DNA of 64,000 nucleotides from positions 15,345-79,344 of the forward strand of contig JADFYI010000001.1 of the NCBI GenBank assembly GCA_015233145.1, read 5' to 3'. Origin of the DNA: Candidatus Omnitrophota bacterium (GTDB lineage: Bacteria; Omnitrophota; Gorgyraeia; Zapsychrales; Fredricksoniimonadaceae). This document shows positions 4,657-64,000 of this stretch, in pieces. The notes under the pieces are model-generated. The model had not been told where the DNA came from. It saw only the letters and a program-made list of their open reading frames with translations, and searched no databases. Position 1 is the stretch's first letter; each line of letters opens with the position of its first letter. The translations under genes and the position numbers were made by a program.

Positions 4657-5175
4657 ATGGCATTAATTCACTGTCCCGAATGCAATGAACAAATTAGCGA
4701 TAAAGCCTTGGCTTGCCCCAAATGCGGACATCCGAGAATGTCTCAATTGATGGGATGGCGGGCGTTAGGGTTTGAATGGAAAACCAAAGAAGAGGTTTTT
4801 GGCTGGCCGTTGATCCATATTGCGGTTGGATTTGACAAGAAAACAGGGCGGTTGGCGGTTGCGCGAGGCATTATTGCCATTGGGCAGTTTGGGATAGGCG
4901 TTATTACTCTTGCTCAATTCGGGGTCGGACTGTTATTTGGATTAGGACAGTTTGTCGCGGGTTTTTGTGTGATCGGCCAATTTGCATTTGGCATTTTTTT
5001 CGGTTTGGGGCAAATTGCCACGGGAATGACAGCCATAGGGCAGTTTGGTTTTGGGCAGTATGTCCGCGCCATGGCGGGAATCGGCCAGCATTTATGGACA
5101 ATGAAGATCAAAGATCCTGAGGCCGTTGAACATTTTAGAAAGTTTTTTGATGTTTTAAAGCTTCATGCAGGTTGA
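4657..5175 (+). CDS. zinc-ribbon protein with a C-terminal glycine-rich GQF-repeat membrane region
   Basis: N-terminal CPECNEQISDKALACPKCGHP (CxxC-x13-CxxC). It is followed by six or more iterations of (I/L)GQF(G/A/V)xG within hydrophobic sequence. Confidence 0.7.
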   Translation: MALIHCPECNEQISDKALACPKCGHPRMSQLMGWRALGFEWKTKEEVFGWPLIHIAVGFDKKTGRLAVARGIIAIGQFGIGVITLAQFGVGLLFGLGQFVAGFCVIGQFAFGIFFGLGQIATGMTAIGQFGFGQYVRAMAGIGQHLWTMKIKDPEAVEHFRKFFDVLKLHAG

Positions 5176-5186
5176 ATTTTGAGTTA
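5142..5186 (+). repeat. 45-bp direct repeat, copy 1 (3' end and stop of the 4657..5175 gene)
   Basis: GTTTTTTGATGTTTTAAAGCTTCATGCAGGTTGAATTTTGAGTTA matches 6554..6598 at 43 of 45 positions. Confidence 0.9.
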
Positions 5187-6368: not shown

Positions 6369-6422
6369 CGATCAGTCAGGAAGAATTTTAATTTTAAATA
6401 AAAATCTGCAGAAATTTAGAAA

Positions 6423-6587
6423 ATTATAACACAACAATCCATTTTATGCCCCTTTTATGTGGTCTCCGGCGCGGCATCGCGTATCTCGCGTTATCCGACG
6501 AGAGAATATGCCTTCTGCAGGGCTGATGAATCCGTATGCAAAGATGCCGAAGGGTTTTTTGATATTTTAAAGCTTCATGCGGGTTGA
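6423..6587 (+). pseudogene. start-less relic of a paralogue of the 4657..5175 gene (3' end only)
   Basis: The open frame ends ...CKDAEGFFDILKLHAG*, against ...KDPEAVEHFRKFFDVLKLHAG* for the intact gene. No ATG or Shine-Dalgarno sequence was found, and similarity is confined to about the last 15 codons. Confidence 0.35.
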
Positions 6588-6598
6588 ATTTTGAGTTA
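6554..6598 (+). repeat. 45-bp direct repeat, copy 2
   Basis: GTTTTTTGATATTTTAAAGCTTCATGCGGGTTGAATTTTGAGTTA matches 5142..5186 at 43 of 45 positions. Confidence 0.9.
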
Positions 6599-6684: not shown

Positions 6685-6845
6685 GAGACATCTGTTTGCC
6701 GTCAAGCTGTAAGCTTGTCGATGCCAACAGATGTCTCCAAAAATTCTGTAGAAAAAGACATTGAGGAAACTCCAGTCTGCCCGTCAAACTGATGGTTTGT
6801 CGTGGCAGACTGGAGTCTCCAAAAATGTCGGAGACATTTTTGGAG
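6685..6845 (+). repeat. two tandem hairpin units plus a tRNA-leader hairpin
   Basis: Unit A has outer stem 6685-6696/6726-6737 (12 bp) and inner stem 6703-6708/6712-6717. Unit B has outer stem 6769-6781/6804-6816 (13 bp) and inner stem 6785-6789/6795-6799. Both contain CCGTCAARCTG and TTGTCG, and both end in GTCTCCAAAAAT. A third hairpin, CTCCAAAAATGTC-GGA-GACATTTTTGGAG (6817-6845), overlaps tRNA nt 1-4. Confidence 0.75.
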
Positions 6846-6929
6846 AGGTGGCTGAGCGGCCGAAAGCGGCGGTCTTGAAAACCGTTGACCCGCAAGGGTC
6901 CGTGAGTTCGAATCTCACCCTCTCCGCCA
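6842..6929 (+). tRNA. tRNA-Ser (anticodon UGA), CCA encoded
   Basis: Acceptor GGAGAGG/CCTCTCC+G+CCA, D stem GCT/AGC, anticodon stem GCGGT/ACCGT with loop CT-TGA-AA, long variable arm, T arm GTGAG-TTCGAAT-CTCAC. Confidence 0.92.
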
Positions 6930-7753: not shown

Positions 7754-7807
7754 GGTCCAGAAGAGTAGAGTGCGTTGCCGATGCCCAAACGATGCCCTAA
7801 AAATGGC

Positions 7808-7830
7808 GAGCCGTTGCGTTGCAACGGCTC
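7808..7830 (+). terminator. intrinsic terminator candidate
   Basis: GAGCCGTTGC-GTT-GCAACGGCTC forms a 10-bp perfect stem and is followed by TATTTTGTT. Confidence 0.55.
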
Positions 7831-7843
7831 TATTTTGTTCCTC

Positions 7844-7882
7844 ATAAGCCCGGCTAAGAATAAAAATTCTTGCCGGGCTTAT
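7844..7882. terminator. second long hairpin between convergent genes
   Basis: ATAAGCCCGGC-T-AAGAAT-AAAA-ATTCTT-GCCGGGCTTAT forms a 17-bp composite stem. It lies between the convergent 7007..7753 (+) and 7926..8840 (-) genes. Confidence 0.45.
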
Positions 7883-7925
7883 TTCGTCACAAACCAGGAG
7901 ATAGCCATGCTGTTCAGGGGGTTTT

Positions 7926-23818: not shown

Positions 23819-23950
23819 GAGAGCCGTCCGGTGCATGTCAGTCGCTCGGACAGTCCTCGTTTCGCTGCCAAGGTTGGAATCATAGTTTTTGATTGTTTGT
23901 GGAGCAGCTCACTGCGGAACTCGCTTGGTGACATGCCCCCTCCGGCTCTC
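23819..23950 (+). repeat. intergenic repeat, copy 1: 100-nt core (23835-23934) inside the stem GAGAGCCG/CGGCTCTC
   Basis: The core is 89/100 identical, without indels, to 31129-31228. The core ends are ATGTCA/TGACAT. Confidence 0.9.
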
Positions 23951-28652: not shown

Positions 28653-28667
28653 TAGGGGCTCTTGGTT

Positions 28668-30122
28668 ATGCCTAAAGAGATTAATAAATCTGTACCAGAA
28701 ACCAGCCTGACCGGCGATTATAAATTCGGTTTTCATGCGGACCTGGAGACTGACAGCGCGCCAAAAGGTTTAAACGAAGACATCATTCGCCTGATTTCCA
28801 GAAAGAAGAATGAGCCTGAGTTTATGGTGGACTGGCGGCTCAAGGCGTATCGCCATTGGCTGACCATGAAAGAGCCACATTGGGCGAACTTTACCTATGG
28901 CCCCATAGATTACCAGGATATCTGTTATTATTCGGCCCCTAAAAAGAAAGGCGACGGCCCCAAAAGCCTGGCTGAGGTGGATAAGGAAGTTGTCCGGACC
29001 TTTGAAAAATTGGGCATCCCTTTAGGCGAGCAAAAGCGTTTGGCAGGGGTTGCCGTGGATGCGGTTTTTGACAGTGTGTCTGTCGGCACGACCCATCAAC
29101 TGGAGCTTGAGAAGGTGGGCATTATTTTTTGTCCGATTTCCGAGGCCCTTCAAAAACATCCTGACCTGGTAAGAAAGTATTTAGGGAGCGTTGTTCCTCC
29201 TACAGACAATTATTTCGCGGCGCTTAATTCCGCGGTTTTTACGGATGGATCATTTTGTTATATCCCCAAGGGCGTGCGTTGCCCCATTGAACTTTCAACT
29301 TATTTTCGCATCAATGCCAAAGACACGGGCCAGTTTGAACGCACGCTGATTGTGGCTGAAGAAGGCTCTTATGTTAATTATCTGGAAGGCTGCACTGCAC
29401 CGGTAAGAGATGAGAACCAGCTGCATGCTGCTGTGGTTGAACTTGTGGCTTTGGATAATGCTGAAATCAAATATTCAACGGTCCAGAACTGGTATTCCGG
29501 CGATAAAGAAGGCAAGGGTGGGATTTATAATTTTGTGACCAAGCGCGGAAAATGTTTGGGCCATAACTCCAAAATTTCATGGACTCAGGTCGAGGCAGGG
29601 AGTGCTATTACCTGGAAATATCCCAGCTGTATTTTGCAGGGCGATCATTCGGTGGGCGAGTTTTATTCCGTGGCCTTGACCAATAATCGCATGCAGGCTG
29701 ATACAGGCACTAAAATGATCCATATCGGCAAAAATACCCGAAGCACCATTATTTCTAAAGGGATTTCTTCCGGGCATGCTAATAACAGTTATCGCGGGCT
29801 TGTGAAAGTTTTGCCGTCAGCGGAAAATGCCAGGAATTTTTCCCAGTGCGATTCCATGCTTGTGGGTAATAATTGCAGCGCCAATACGTTTCCTTATATT
29901 GAGATTGAAAATAACAGCGCCACTATGGAACATGAGGCCACGACATCCAAGATCAGCGAGGAGCAGGTGTTTTATCTTCAGTCGCGCGGCCTGAACAAGG
30001 AAGAAGCCATTTCTTTGGTCATTAACGGGTTCTGCAAGGAAGTATTTAAGGAATTGCCGCTGGAGTTTGCAGTAGAGGCAGTTAAGCTTTTGGAAATGAA
30101 ACTAGAAGGCAGCGTGGGTTAA
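28668..30122 (+). CDS. sufB: Fe-S cluster assembly protein SufB
   Basis: ATG at 28668. [19 protein letters not shown] and [12 protein letters not shown] are SufB signatures. Confidence 0.95.
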
Positions 30123-30140
30123 CTGATTTGCATGATAAGG

Positions 30141-30310
30141 ATGTGATGTTGGCGACTGGAATTTTTCGAGCGGTGTCGGTCGAGTGAGCGGGTATGGTTT
30201 TGTCGTCACTTGAGTGACGACAAAGAGCGAACGAGACCGTCAAGTGCCGGCCGCCACGCTGGGACGGCCAAACGTCCGCGAGAAAAATGTAAGAAGCCAA
30301 CAGATCACAT
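30141..30310 (+). repeat. 170-nt rod-like imperfect palindrome in the sufB-sufC spacer
   Basis: Outer stem ATGTGAT-GTTGGC (30141-30153) pairs with GCCAACAGATCACAT (30296-30310). A second tier pairs TTTTTC..GCGG with CCGC..GAAAAA. The central perfect hairpin is TTGTCGTCAC-TTGA-GTGACGACAA (30200-30223). Confidence 0.8.
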
Positions 30311-30348
30311 TTTAAAGAAAACTTCAGATAGTTTTTAATGGGAATAAT

Positions 30349-31101
30349 ATGCTAAATATTAAAAATTTATACGCGAGTGTTCAGGGCAATCAGATTTTAA
30401 AAGGCGTGTCTCTGGCCGTTAATGCCGGTGAAGTTCATGCGATTATGGGGCCCAATGGCTCCGGGAAAAGCACGCTTTCCAGGGTCGTGACAGGCCATCC
30501 CCAGTATACTGTGGATGGGGGCGTCTTGGAGTATGACATTGGCGGGCAAATGACGAATATTATCGGAAAAGAGCCTGATGAACGCGCGCGGGAAGGCATT
30601 TTCCTGGCTTTTCAATATCCCGTTGAAATTCCCGGGGTTCCGGCCTCTGAGTTTTTAAGGGCTTCTTATAATGCGGTGGGCCGGCACCATGGCCTTGAGG
30701 AAATGGACCCTATTGATTTTGACGTGTTTGTCCGTGAGAAGATGAAGGTCTTGGAAATGGATGACAAATATCTGGACCGTGCCTTGAATGTGGATTTTTC
30801 AGGGGGAGAAAAGAAGCGCAATGAAATTTTACAGATGGCTGTGTTAAACCCGCGCCTGGCACTTTTGGATGAGACAGATTCCGGGCTTGATATTGATTCC
30901 ATGAAAATCGTGGCCCATGGGGTAAATACGCTGCGCAGCAAGCGCAATGCCATGATTGTGATTACGCATTACCAAAGGCTGCTCAATTTTATCAAGCCTG
31001 ATTTTGTGCATATTCTGTATCAGGGAAAAATCATCAAGTCCGGCGGCCCTGATTTGGCCTTAAAGGTTGAAGATAAGGGTTACGATTGGCTTATCAAGTG
31101 A
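30349..31101 (+). CDS. sufC: Fe-S cluster assembly ATPase SufC
   Basis: Walker A GPNGSGKST, ABC signature FSGGEKKR, Walker B LALLDETDSGLD. Confidence 0.96.
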   Translation: MLNIKNLYASVQGNQILKGVSLAVNAGEVHAIMGPNGSGKSTLSRVVTGHPQYTVDGGVLEYDIGGQMTNIIGKEPDERAREGIFLAFQYPVEIPGVPASEFLRASYNAVGRHHGLEEMDPIDFDVFVREKMKVLEMDDKYLDRALNVDFSGGEKKRNEILQMAVLNPRLALLDETDSGLDIDSMKIVAHGVNTLRSKRNAMIVITHYQRLLNFIKPDFVHILYQGKIIKSGGPDLALKVEDKGYDWLIK

Positions 31102-31109
31102 TTAGGCGG

Positions 31110-31246
31110 GCAGGGTGACCTTTGGGACATGTCAGTCGCTCGGACAGTCCTCACTTCGCCGCCAAGTTTGGAATTATAGGTTTTGAATATTTGTGGAGCG
31201 GCTCGTTGCGGAACTCGCTTGGTGACATATCCCAAAGGTTCCCTGC
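31110..31246 (+). repeat. intergenic repeat, copy 2: 100-nt core (31129-31228) inside the stem GCAGGGTGACCTTTGGGA/TCCCAAAGGTTCCCTGC
   Basis: Same core as 23835-23934 and same orientation. The flanking inverted repeat has a different sequence. Confidence 0.9.
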
Positions 31247-62028: not shown

Positions 62029-64000
62029 AAAGGAAAAAATGCAGTTAGATCGTATTGTCATAAAAAAAGCCAGGGAACACAACCTTAAAAACATTTCGTT
62101 AGAGCTTCCCCGTAATAAATTTATTGTGATTACAGGGTTAAGCGGCTCGGGAAAGTCTTCGCTGGCGTTTGACACGATTTATGCCGAAGGCCAGCGCCGG
62201 TATGTGGAGAGCTTGTCAGCTTATGCCCGCCAGTTTTTGGATCAGATGCAAAAGCCGGATGTGGAATCCATTGAGGGGCTCAGCCCCACCATTTCGATTG
62301 AACAAAAAACCACCAGCCGTAACCCGCGCTCCACAGTGGCCACTCAAACTGAAATTTATGACTATATGCGCCTCCTATTCGCGCGGGTGGGTGTTCCCTA
62401 TTATAAAGGACGAAAACTTGAAAAGCAGTCAGCCCAGGAGATGGTGGCGCGTATTCTAAAGTTGCCTGAAGGAACAAAGGTTAATATTTTAGCGCCCATG
62501 ATTCGCGGCAAGAAGGGGACTTATCCAGACATTCAAAAGCAGGTGATGAAAGCCGGCTTTGCCCGGTTGCGTGTGGACGGTGAAATTTACGGGGTTGAGG
62601 AAAAGTTCAAGCTCGACCGTTATAAAATCCATCACATTGATATTGTTGTGGACCGGGTGGTTGTTAAAAATGATGTGAAAAACCGTTTAACGGATTCTGT
62701 GGAAACAGCGCTTCGTGTGGGCAAGGGTGTTCTTATTGTTTCTTTTTATGATGACCAGCCGGATCTGATTTTGAGCGAGACGTTTTCTGTGCCGGATGAA
62801 GACATTAATCTTCCGGAATTGGAGCCCAGGACATTTTCTTTTAATTCCCCTTACGGCGCCTGCAGTGCGTGCAACGGGTTGGGGACAAAAATGGAAATTG
62901 ATGTGGATTCCCTGGTCACAGACCCCCAAAAACCATGGGTTTCAGCCATTGTGCCCTGGAAAAAGGGACAGCGGGGGTACATGATGTATTATCGCGCTGT
63001 GCTTCGGGAACTGGCCGGGCTTTATGATATTGATGTGACATGCCCTTTTAAGAAACTTCCCAGGGATTTTAAACGCCGTGTGCTTTTTGGCGGGGAAGAC
63101 ATTATCTGGGGCAGGAAATTTGAGGGTGTAACCGGGTATCTTGAGCGCCTGTTCCGGGAAACAGACAGCGAGTGGCTTAAAGAAGAGATTGCCAGGTTTA
63201 TGTCCGAGGCGCCCTGTCCGGTGTGCGAGGGTCGGCGTTTAAAAAGAGAAACCCTTATGGTGCTTGTGGCAGGCAAGAATATTGCCGAGATAACAAAGTT
63301 TTCTATTGTCGAAGCCAGGAAATTTTTTACCAAAATAGATCTTCCCAAAGAGGGAAAACTTGTTGCCGAGCCGATCCTCAAGGAAATTAACCGCAGGCTG
63401 GATTTTTGCATCAACGTGGGGCTTGAGTATCTGACGCTTGACCGACGCAGTTCAACGCTCTCAGGCGGCGAGGCCGAGCGCATCCGTTTGGCGACTCAAG
63501 TGGGCTCAGGCCTGGTGGGCGTTGTTTATGTCCTGGATGAGCCGTCGATCGGGCTTCATCAGAAAGATAATGAACGGCTTTTATCAAGCCTTCATGCGCT
63601 TCGGGATTTAGGCAATACCCTTATTGTGGTCGAGCATGATGAAGACACGATCCGCAAGGCGGATTATGTGGTTGACCTGGGGCCTGGCGCCGGGGAATAT
63701 GGCGGCAAGATCCTTTACGCGGGGCCGGTGGATGGGCTTTTGACGTCACAAGAGTCTTTGACCGGGCAATATTTAAGAGGGGAGCTCAAGATCGAACTGC
63801 CGCTTCAGCGCCGGAAGATCGACCCGGCATACGCCATTACCATCAAAGCTGCCGGCGCACACAACCTGAAAAATATTGATGTGAGCATCCCTCTGGGGAC
63901 ATTTGTGTGCGTGACAGGGGTTTCAGGCTCCGGGAAATCCACGCTCGTGGATAATGTGTTATATAAAGCGCTTGCCCAGCGTATTTATAAAACCCGCGAA
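62029..64000 (+). CDS. uvrA: excinuclease ABC subunit A, 3' end outside window
   Basis: The frame is open from ATG 62029 to the window edge. It is absent from the ORF track because no stop is reached. Motifs include [62 protein letters not shown], and a second Walker [11 protein letters not shown]. Confidence 0.96.

Follow-up and report, generated by a model that had tools for sequence, protein, structure and literature searches.

In a 64-kb window of a Candidatus Omnitrophota genome (the window being the whole stretch of 64,000 nt that was analysed), the iron-sulfur assembly genes sufB and sufC are separated by a spacer of 226 nt (30123-30348), most of which is occupied by a rod-like imperfect palindrome. 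An initial annotation described this palindrome as a discrete hairpin element, unrelated in sequence to a core repeat found elsewhere in the window, and placed it in one family with the hairpins that precede a tRNA-Ser gene. The locus raises the question of what such an element is, how it came to lie between two co-directional suf genes and whether it has relatives.

The flanking genes are both on the plus strand. sufB (28662-30122) encodes a protein of 486 aa assigned by NCBIfam NF008773 (SufB, 886.8 bits), with a C-terminus that matches those of relatives, and its TAA stop codon lies 15 nt ahead of the base of the rod. sufC (30349-31101) encodes a protein of 250 aa that matches TIGR01978 (SufC, 330.6 bits) and has 100% identity to MBF0484922.1, a protein encoded on a 231-kb contig of a Candidatus Omnitrophota MAG. 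After sufB and sufC the operon continues with SufD, SufS and SufU, in this order, as assigned with NCBIfam.

Structure and folding of the sufB-sufC spacer

The rod extends over 30138-30313 (~175 nt), with a DNA-level core at 30141-30310, and re-reading of the spacer showed the coordinates and strings quoted in the initial annotation to be correct throughout. The multi-tier imperfect hairpin that had been reported to fill the spacer was borne out by folding, and the comparison of both strands with shuffled controls that had been proposed as a check gave structures far better than chance on either strand. Specifically, the plus-strand RNA of the 226-nt spacer reached -84.0 kcal/mol as compared with -58.5 +/- 4.4 kcal/mol in 200 dinucleotide shuffles (z -5.82), with 0/200 shuffles as good, while the minus-strand RNA of the spacer reached -67.4 kcal/mol (z -6.09) and a DNA fold of the 180-nt rod -40.6 kcal/mol (z -6.02). 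The window has 24 intergenic gaps of 60 nt or more; when these were ranked by folding against mononucleotide shuffles, the tRNA-Ser leader alone (z -7.1) was more anomalous than the sufB-sufC spacer. The sufB-sufC hairpin is real and statistically robust.

The rod forms a quasi-continuous helix of 16-, 2-, 7- and 4-bp segments with small loops between them (all coordinates on the plus strand). The outer stem pairs ATGTGATGTTGGC (30141-30153) with GCCAACAGATCACAT (30296-30310), matching at 13/15 positions with a 2-nt bulge, so that the repeats are imperfect, and as RNA one A-U pair and two G-U pairs carry it on to 30138/30313. The left arm (30138-30153) thereby forms 16 bp with 30296-30313 around a GA bulge at 30303-30304, and this pairing is retained in the centroid structure. 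The right arm (30296-30313), which contains GCCAACAGAT, is followed by only four U. A 2-bp block in the fold separates the outer stem from the second tier, whose left arm (30161-30175; AUUUUUC then GCGGUG) pairs with the right arm at 30276-30288 (CCGC then GAAAAAU); the right arm was recovered by both inverted-repeat search and folding, and the tier is present in the centroid. The third tier is partial and absent from the plus-strand centroid structure: its left arm (30176-30198) is weakly paired, the MFE structure pairing only CGGUC/GACCG and isolated 2-bp blocks, and its right arm (30225-30244), located by folding and string search, contains CCGTCAAG. At the tip (30199-30224, no strand assigned) lies a perfect 26-bp palindrome with 12-bp arms around a central TG, in which TTTGTCGTCACT and AGTGACGACAAA are 100% complementary; by our own arithmetic, ~0.04 hairpins of this type would be expected by chance in 64 kb.

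The rod is asymmetric because a GC-rich segment of 31 nt in the right arm (30245-30275) is without a left-arm counterpart; in the MFE structure, 30249-30255 pairs with 30262-30269 within this segment to give a side hairpin. The rod is also GC-enriched (55-57%) relative to its flanks and to the window (46.8%, or 47% when rounded). Two pieces of residual spacer remain outside the hairpin. The left one (30123-30137) has seven bases that pair with the right flank in both the spacer-wide MFE and the centroid structure, and the right one (30314-30348) is AT-rich (GC content of 0.27 in 30300-30399) and includes, as read from the sequence, a possible ribosome-binding site (GGGA) for sufC.

Two further regions of the window may be mentioned here. 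The gap between convergent genes at 7754-7925 (z -4.4) contains two strong hairpins, one of them a 17-bp stem with a single bulged base (7844-7882), and is probably a bidirectional terminator. The region 62176-63021 (846 nt, 49% GC) is free of ORFs of at least 100 aa, does not fold anomalously and matches nothing in Rfam at gathering thresholds.

Transcription context

Consensus scans of the plus strand of the spacer found no promoter and no terminator. An intrinsic terminator was not called at the rod, where the outer stem is followed by UUUU only (the criterion being at least 5 of 8 U). On the minus strand a weak promoter-like match (9/12) at 30338-30309 points into the rod, and promoter-like matches are unenriched (9 vs 5.8 +/- 2.7 in shuffles). 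Since the consensus scans detected neither promoter nor terminator on the plus strand of the spacer, the rod is most likely part of the suf mRNA, in which it would be carried as a co-transcribed intercistronic stem-loop. Upstream of sufB, some close relatives (L001:2124-2522 and L004:2180-2581) have a gene for an Rrf2-family regulator next to nfu, between it and sufB; this gene is missing from this position in the window (28653-28661) and in relatives L005 and L106.

The sufB-sufC junction in related genomes

The junction was compared across 80 metagenome loci recovered with SufC; 110 loci were fetched in all, of which ~85 are suf loci. After its own match, the nearest relatives of the window's SufC shared only 82-86% identity, so that no close relative is sampled. 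Among these loci the sufB-sufC spacer measures 15 nt in L001-L003; in L004 and L005 the gene calls of the database give 2 nt, and the earliest in-frame start codon gives a 4-nt overlap. The remaining loci of this group have spacers of -4 nt (L106), 12 nt (L109), 42 nt (L107/L108) and 76 nt (L110), and in the closest relatives the range is -4 to 15 nt. More broadly, the junction measures -4 to +2 nt in ~40 of ~60 Omnitrophota-like suf operons. As the junctions of relatives are mostly tight, the tight junction is ancestral and the 226-nt spacer derived. By this comparison the rod, which is missing from the closest relatives, is a lineage-specific insertion into an ancestrally tight junction (overlapping, or with a spacer of up to ~15 nt), in agreement with the initial proposal of a discrete hairpin element in the sufB-sufC spacer.

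Searches for further copies and homologues

Within the 64-kb window, which was the part of the genome itself that was searched for rod copies and for the motif family, blastn and nhmmer detected only the rod and its own reverse complement. Similarly, no copy of the whole rod was found with nhmmer or blastn in the 110 fetched loci, including the ~85 suf loci. Larger collections were scanned with the tip palindrome only, a query that copies conserving just the termini would escape: the 24-mer of the tip had no match in IMG/VR and none in JGI metagenomes, and the tip with a 2-8-nt loop had 20 matches in GTDB representative genomes, every one of them in an unrelated taxon and most in GC-rich ones, as would be consistent with chance.

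Protein-level searches were also run, since small ORFs are frequently mis-annotated on repeats. In a phmmer search of 1.84 billion representatives, the minus frame that is open (60 aa) gave only two matches, both of them spurious and to repeat adhesins; the open plus frame (63 aa) gave nothing in a word-index search of a 5.8-billion-cluster index, and an exact look-up of four ORFs of the rod among annotated proteins gave nothing. The rod shows no coding signal, and none of the frames tested has a homologue. A remnant of a gene was rejected, the symmetric palindrome arguing against it together with the lack of a homologue. At the RNA level, Rfam reported only the two tRNA-Ser genes of the window at gathering thresholds and nothing over the rod at E up to 10, and 6S RNA or another Rfam family was rejected for want of such a covariance-model match. 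A retron ncRNA was discarded, the neighbours being SufB and SufC and no reverse-transcriptase gene being adjacent. An assembly or amplification artefact was set aside because the arms of the rod match imperfectly and do not repeat the sequence next to them. In all the data searched (the 64-kb window of its own genome, the fetched loci and the collections), the rod appears as an orphan.

These results bear on whether the rod has a function of its own, either as the gene of a stand-alone sRNA (6S-like in its rod shape, or antisense) or through its tip acting as a DNA operator for a dimeric suf regulator. 6S RNA resembles the rod in size and shape, the minus-strand promoter-like match (9/12, 30338-30309) is aimed into the rod, and the tip palindrome is perfect where the remainder is degenerate. 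We nevertheless regard such a unit as extremely unlikely: promoter-like matches are not enriched (9 vs 5.8 +/- 2.7, as above), Rfam was silent at E up to 10, relatives have nothing at this position, the tip is without another copy in the window or the collections, and an operator between genes one and two of an operon would be atypical.

Relationship to the tRNA-Ser leader hairpins

In the window, a pair of hairpin units arranged in tandem (6685-6737 and 6765-6820) precedes tRNA-Ser(tga) (6842-6929), and GTCTCCAAAAAT follows each unit. In its second copy, GTCTCCAAAAAT pairs perfectly over 14 bp (6816-6829 with 6833-6846, that is, the leader and the first 5 nt of the tRNA), and the leader AAATTTTTGGAGAG is common to both tRNA-Ser genes. 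The long tRNA-Ser leader region also carries one copy (6554-6598) of a 45-nt direct repeat, 96% identical to the other copy at the 3' end of an ORF (5142-5186).

The proposal that the rod and the two tRNA-Ser hairpin units form one family of variable-length hairpins marked by GCCAACAGAT and CCGTCAAG was made from motifs shared by the two sites, and both strings do occur in both places, with GCCAACAGAT in the right arm of the outer stem at each. By our own arithmetic (~20 chance 10-mers multiplied by the share of the leader hairpins), this co-location has a probability of roughly p = 0.05. The level of sharing is, however, that of chance. Between the rod and the remainder of the 64-kb window, 15 exact 10-mers are held in common vs 19.6 +/- 6.1 for shuffles, one 11-mer (in a coding region, 16319) vs 5.0, and no 12-mer vs 1.2. 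CCGTCAAG occurs 4 times in the window vs 1.4 expected, a count reached by 8/100 shuffles, and GCCAACAGAT is found exactly a third time, as part of an 11-mer match, in a coding region. The covariation described for the last 5 nt merely restates the complementarity of the arms within each hairpin. Neither blastn (word size 7) nor nhmmer linked the suf rod to the tRNA-Ser leader region, and the GTCTCCAAAAAT that ends both leader units is missing from the suf rod, which is followed by TTTTAAAG instead. A common family of the rod and the leader hairpins is accordingly judged very unlikely.

The other part of the initial description, that the rod is unrelated in sequence to the core repeat, holds. 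This 106-nt core fills the next spacer, sufC-sufD (31128-31233), and has a second copy at 23834-23939, which likewise fills a spacer, 7.3 kb upstream; the two copies are 88% identical. The core ends in CATGTCA...TGACATG, and its flanks are self-complementary and different for each copy (23811-23840/23929-23958 and 31102-31134/31223-31254), which looks as if the core had been inserted into the centre of pre-existing palindromes.

Hairpin inserts at the suf junctions of relatives

The survey of spacers was extended to all four suf junctions (B-C, C-D, D-S and S-U) in relatives with at least 66% SufC identity, and yielded 35 different spacers with a length of 45 nt or more, or 37 with the window's own two. 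Hairpin inserts of 45-184 nt, unrelated in sequence, are present in related lineages at each of the four junctions. Of these 37 long spacers, 20 fold with z below -3. Long rods are found in relatives as well, with lengths of 168 nt (L027/L028, at sufB-sufC), 148 nt (L053) and 184 nt (L058). Homology of the window's rod with the 168-nt rod of L027/L028, which occupies the same junction, was considered and rejected, the alignment being similar in the coding flanks only and nhmmer being silent. Small-hairpin families recur at several junctions and in several genomes, some with further inserts in their loops, which leads to tiered hairpins like the suf rod, and GTAG-tagged REP-like hairpins are present in L026 and L062. 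None of the small-hairpin families of the relatives occurs in the 64-kb window. Hairpin-forming intergenic inserts are therefore general in the clade as sampled here, and they belong to many unrelated families rather than to one. In Omnitrophota, unrelated hairpins of 45-230 nt have repeatedly split suf junctions that were ancestrally overlapping, and some of these hairpins come from dispersed families.

Several of these families can be described individually. One consists of CCCCTCTTT, a loop and AAAGAGGGG, then TTA or CA, then GGGGGAG, and is always in the sense orientation, with copies at L038:2940-2973 and 6442-6505, L040:5092-5123, L056:5144-5175 and 6415-6448, L042:6421-6452 and L032:6364-6395. 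Its GGGGGAG is Shine-Dalgarno-like and could alternatively pair with the 5' arm, and one copy has a 30-nt insert in the loop. Other small hairpins, GTCATTCCCGCGAAAGCGGGAATC and GTCATTGCGAG..GCAATC, are dispersed, with constant GTCAT/ATC flanks and variable stems, on both strands and in some cases with nested inserts (L034:2958-2981, L043 with four copies, L057, L061 and L031; L046:3766-3799, L052, L062 and L066). Finally, some sufB-sufC hairpins of relatives have arms made of inverted tandem heptamers, for example GTCACAA(G) x4 facing TTGTGAC x4, or CGTGAAG units (L066:2907-3000, L068:662-756, L069:2906-3000 and L074:854-1249). The heptamer-repeat arms suggest slippage and template switching.

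The recurrence of unrelated hairpins at suf junctions across many Omnitrophota lineages could be taken to mean that the rod is an intercistronic RNA under selection, either as an RNase III site or 3'-exonuclease barrier that sets the level of sufB relative to sufCDSU mRNA, or as a compact fold that keeps the genes coupled by holding the sufB stop near the sufC start despite the insertion. The sense strand is the more stable one here (-84 vs -67 kcal/mol) and in 22/37 related spacers (Wilcoxon p = 0.02), the CCCCTCTTT..AAAGAGGGG..GGGGGAG family is always sense with its Shine-Dalgarno-like run, and the rod begins 15 nt past the sufB stop. The size of the ribosome footprint is established, the downstream edge of a terminating ribosome lying roughly 15 nt past the stop, so that the base of the rod may be positioned at about that edge.

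The plus (mRNA-sense) strand is more stable than the minus strand by 12-17 kcal/mol. This advantage of the sense strand hints at a constraint at the RNA level, but it follows G>C skew; the shuffle-normalised z is equal on both strands, and the advantage is therefore compositional. The G-U pair counts favour neither strand of the rod (2 vs 3). Most relatives, including the closest ones, are without a hairpin at sufB-sufC, inserts occur at any of the four suf junctions with no positional preference, and the rod has no homologues on which covariation could be seen. Taken together, a selected role of the rod in the suf mRNA is considered unlikely.

Comparison with known element classes

The rod was compared with the main classes of bacterial intergenic palindromes. 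Correia elements (CREE/NEMIS) of Neisseria are palindromic non-coding intergenic inserts of 100-155 bp, often located within operons, and are co-transcribed as a long hairpin that RNase III may cleave or that may protect the transcript (PMC2649163, PMC10969869). The rod is alike in being a non-coding palindromic insert in an intergenic region, possibly also with flanking TA; Correia elements, however, number in the hundreds, their 26-nt terminal repeats are well conserved and their TA duplication is clear, whereas the rod is known in one copy and has imperfect termini and a TA without statistical weight, and the comparison is one of descriptions rather than of consensus sequences, between different phyla. 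ERIC/IRU sequences of enterobacteria and Yersinia are imperfect palindromes of ~127 bp, located in intergenic DNA that is transcribed, that form a rod in mRNA and alter the stability of flanking cistrons (PMC10969869, PMC2229807). They resemble the rod as imperfect palindromes in intergenic regions, but ERIC is multi-copy with a conserved consensus, whereas the rod is an orphan, longer (~175 nt) and asymmetric, with 31 nt extra in one arm.

REP sequences are GC-rich palindromes between co-directional genes, plausibly acting as RNA elements, of 20-40 bp and high copy number with an unpaired GTAG/CGTC tag at one end (PMC3733652). The rod is likewise a GC-rich palindrome between co-directional genes, and the GTAG-tagged hairpins of L026 and L062 lie at sufB-sufC. 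A REP assignment was rejected for the rod, which is ~175 nt long, is without a terminal tag, has CGTC only within the stem of the tip and is single-copy in the data. Measured against the description of MITEs, the rod falls within the size range (~175 nt as compared with about 50-500 bp), its ORFs are without homologues and it has terminal inverted repeats, though imperfect ones. As to a target-site duplication, there is only a TA on each side (30136-30137 and 30313-30314), which is indistinguishable from chance in AT-rich flanks. Replication template switching, which creates a perfect inverted repeat in a single event and is able to extend stems already present (PMC8794818), is a mutational mechanism and not a family of elements. 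The rod is assigned to no named family.

Origin and significance of the rod

The rod is probably an orphan palindromic insert, similar to a MITE or to ERIC/Correia-like elements, which would be carried as a stem-loop in the suf mRNA and would be near-neutral. According to this explanation, ~175 bp of non-coding, GC-enriched and imperfectly palindromic DNA was inserted between sufB and sufC in this lineage and would fold as a long intercistronic stem-loop in the mRNA. Its persistence would not depend on coding but on a compact intergenic hairpin doing little harm. Consistent with passive insertion are the degree of structure (z of -5.8, -6.1 and -6.0), the short junctions of the closest relatives, the recurrence of unrelated inserts in relatives and the presence, at the sufC-sufD junction of the same operon, of a different repeat with a second copy 7.3 kb away. 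Counting against it are the single copy in every search, the imperfect terminal repeats and the lack of a convincing target-site duplication. Because no second copy was found, the mobility of the rod is unproven. The insert may have arisen by transposition of a non-autonomous element, or the hairpin may have grown in place by template switching during replication. The latter would explain a perfect tip inside a degenerate rod, as well as the heptamer-repeat hairpins of relatives.

Two side effects would be expected from such an insert. The stop-start coupling of sufB and sufC would be lost, leaving sufC to rely on its own ribosome-binding site, and, by analogy with Correia and ERIC elements, the long helix might be cut by RNase III or might block 3'-exonucleases.

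A broader and distinctly improbable possibility is that the tight, coupled junctions of Omnitrophota have been colonised repeatedly by unrelated rods because a rod is the only kind of insert that selection tolerates or favours there, which would make these hairpins a convergent class of regulators independent of sequence. If this were true, the rod would reunite the upstream stop with the downstream start, and a double-stranded module on the sense strand, such as an RNase III site, would tune the ratio of SufB to SufCDSU, and the 175-nt rod of the window would be the largest example.

By itself the rod matters little, being one more non-coding palindromic insert, without relatives that would permit a test of covariation or mobility. 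It has a modest value in that it illustrates the wider colonisation of Omnitrophota suf junctions by hairpins. For annotation it advises caution, since long structured intergenic RNAs in Omnitrophota need not be riboswitches or sRNAs, and the inserts at suf junctions may offer a natural experiment on how far an operon tolerates intercistronic structure.
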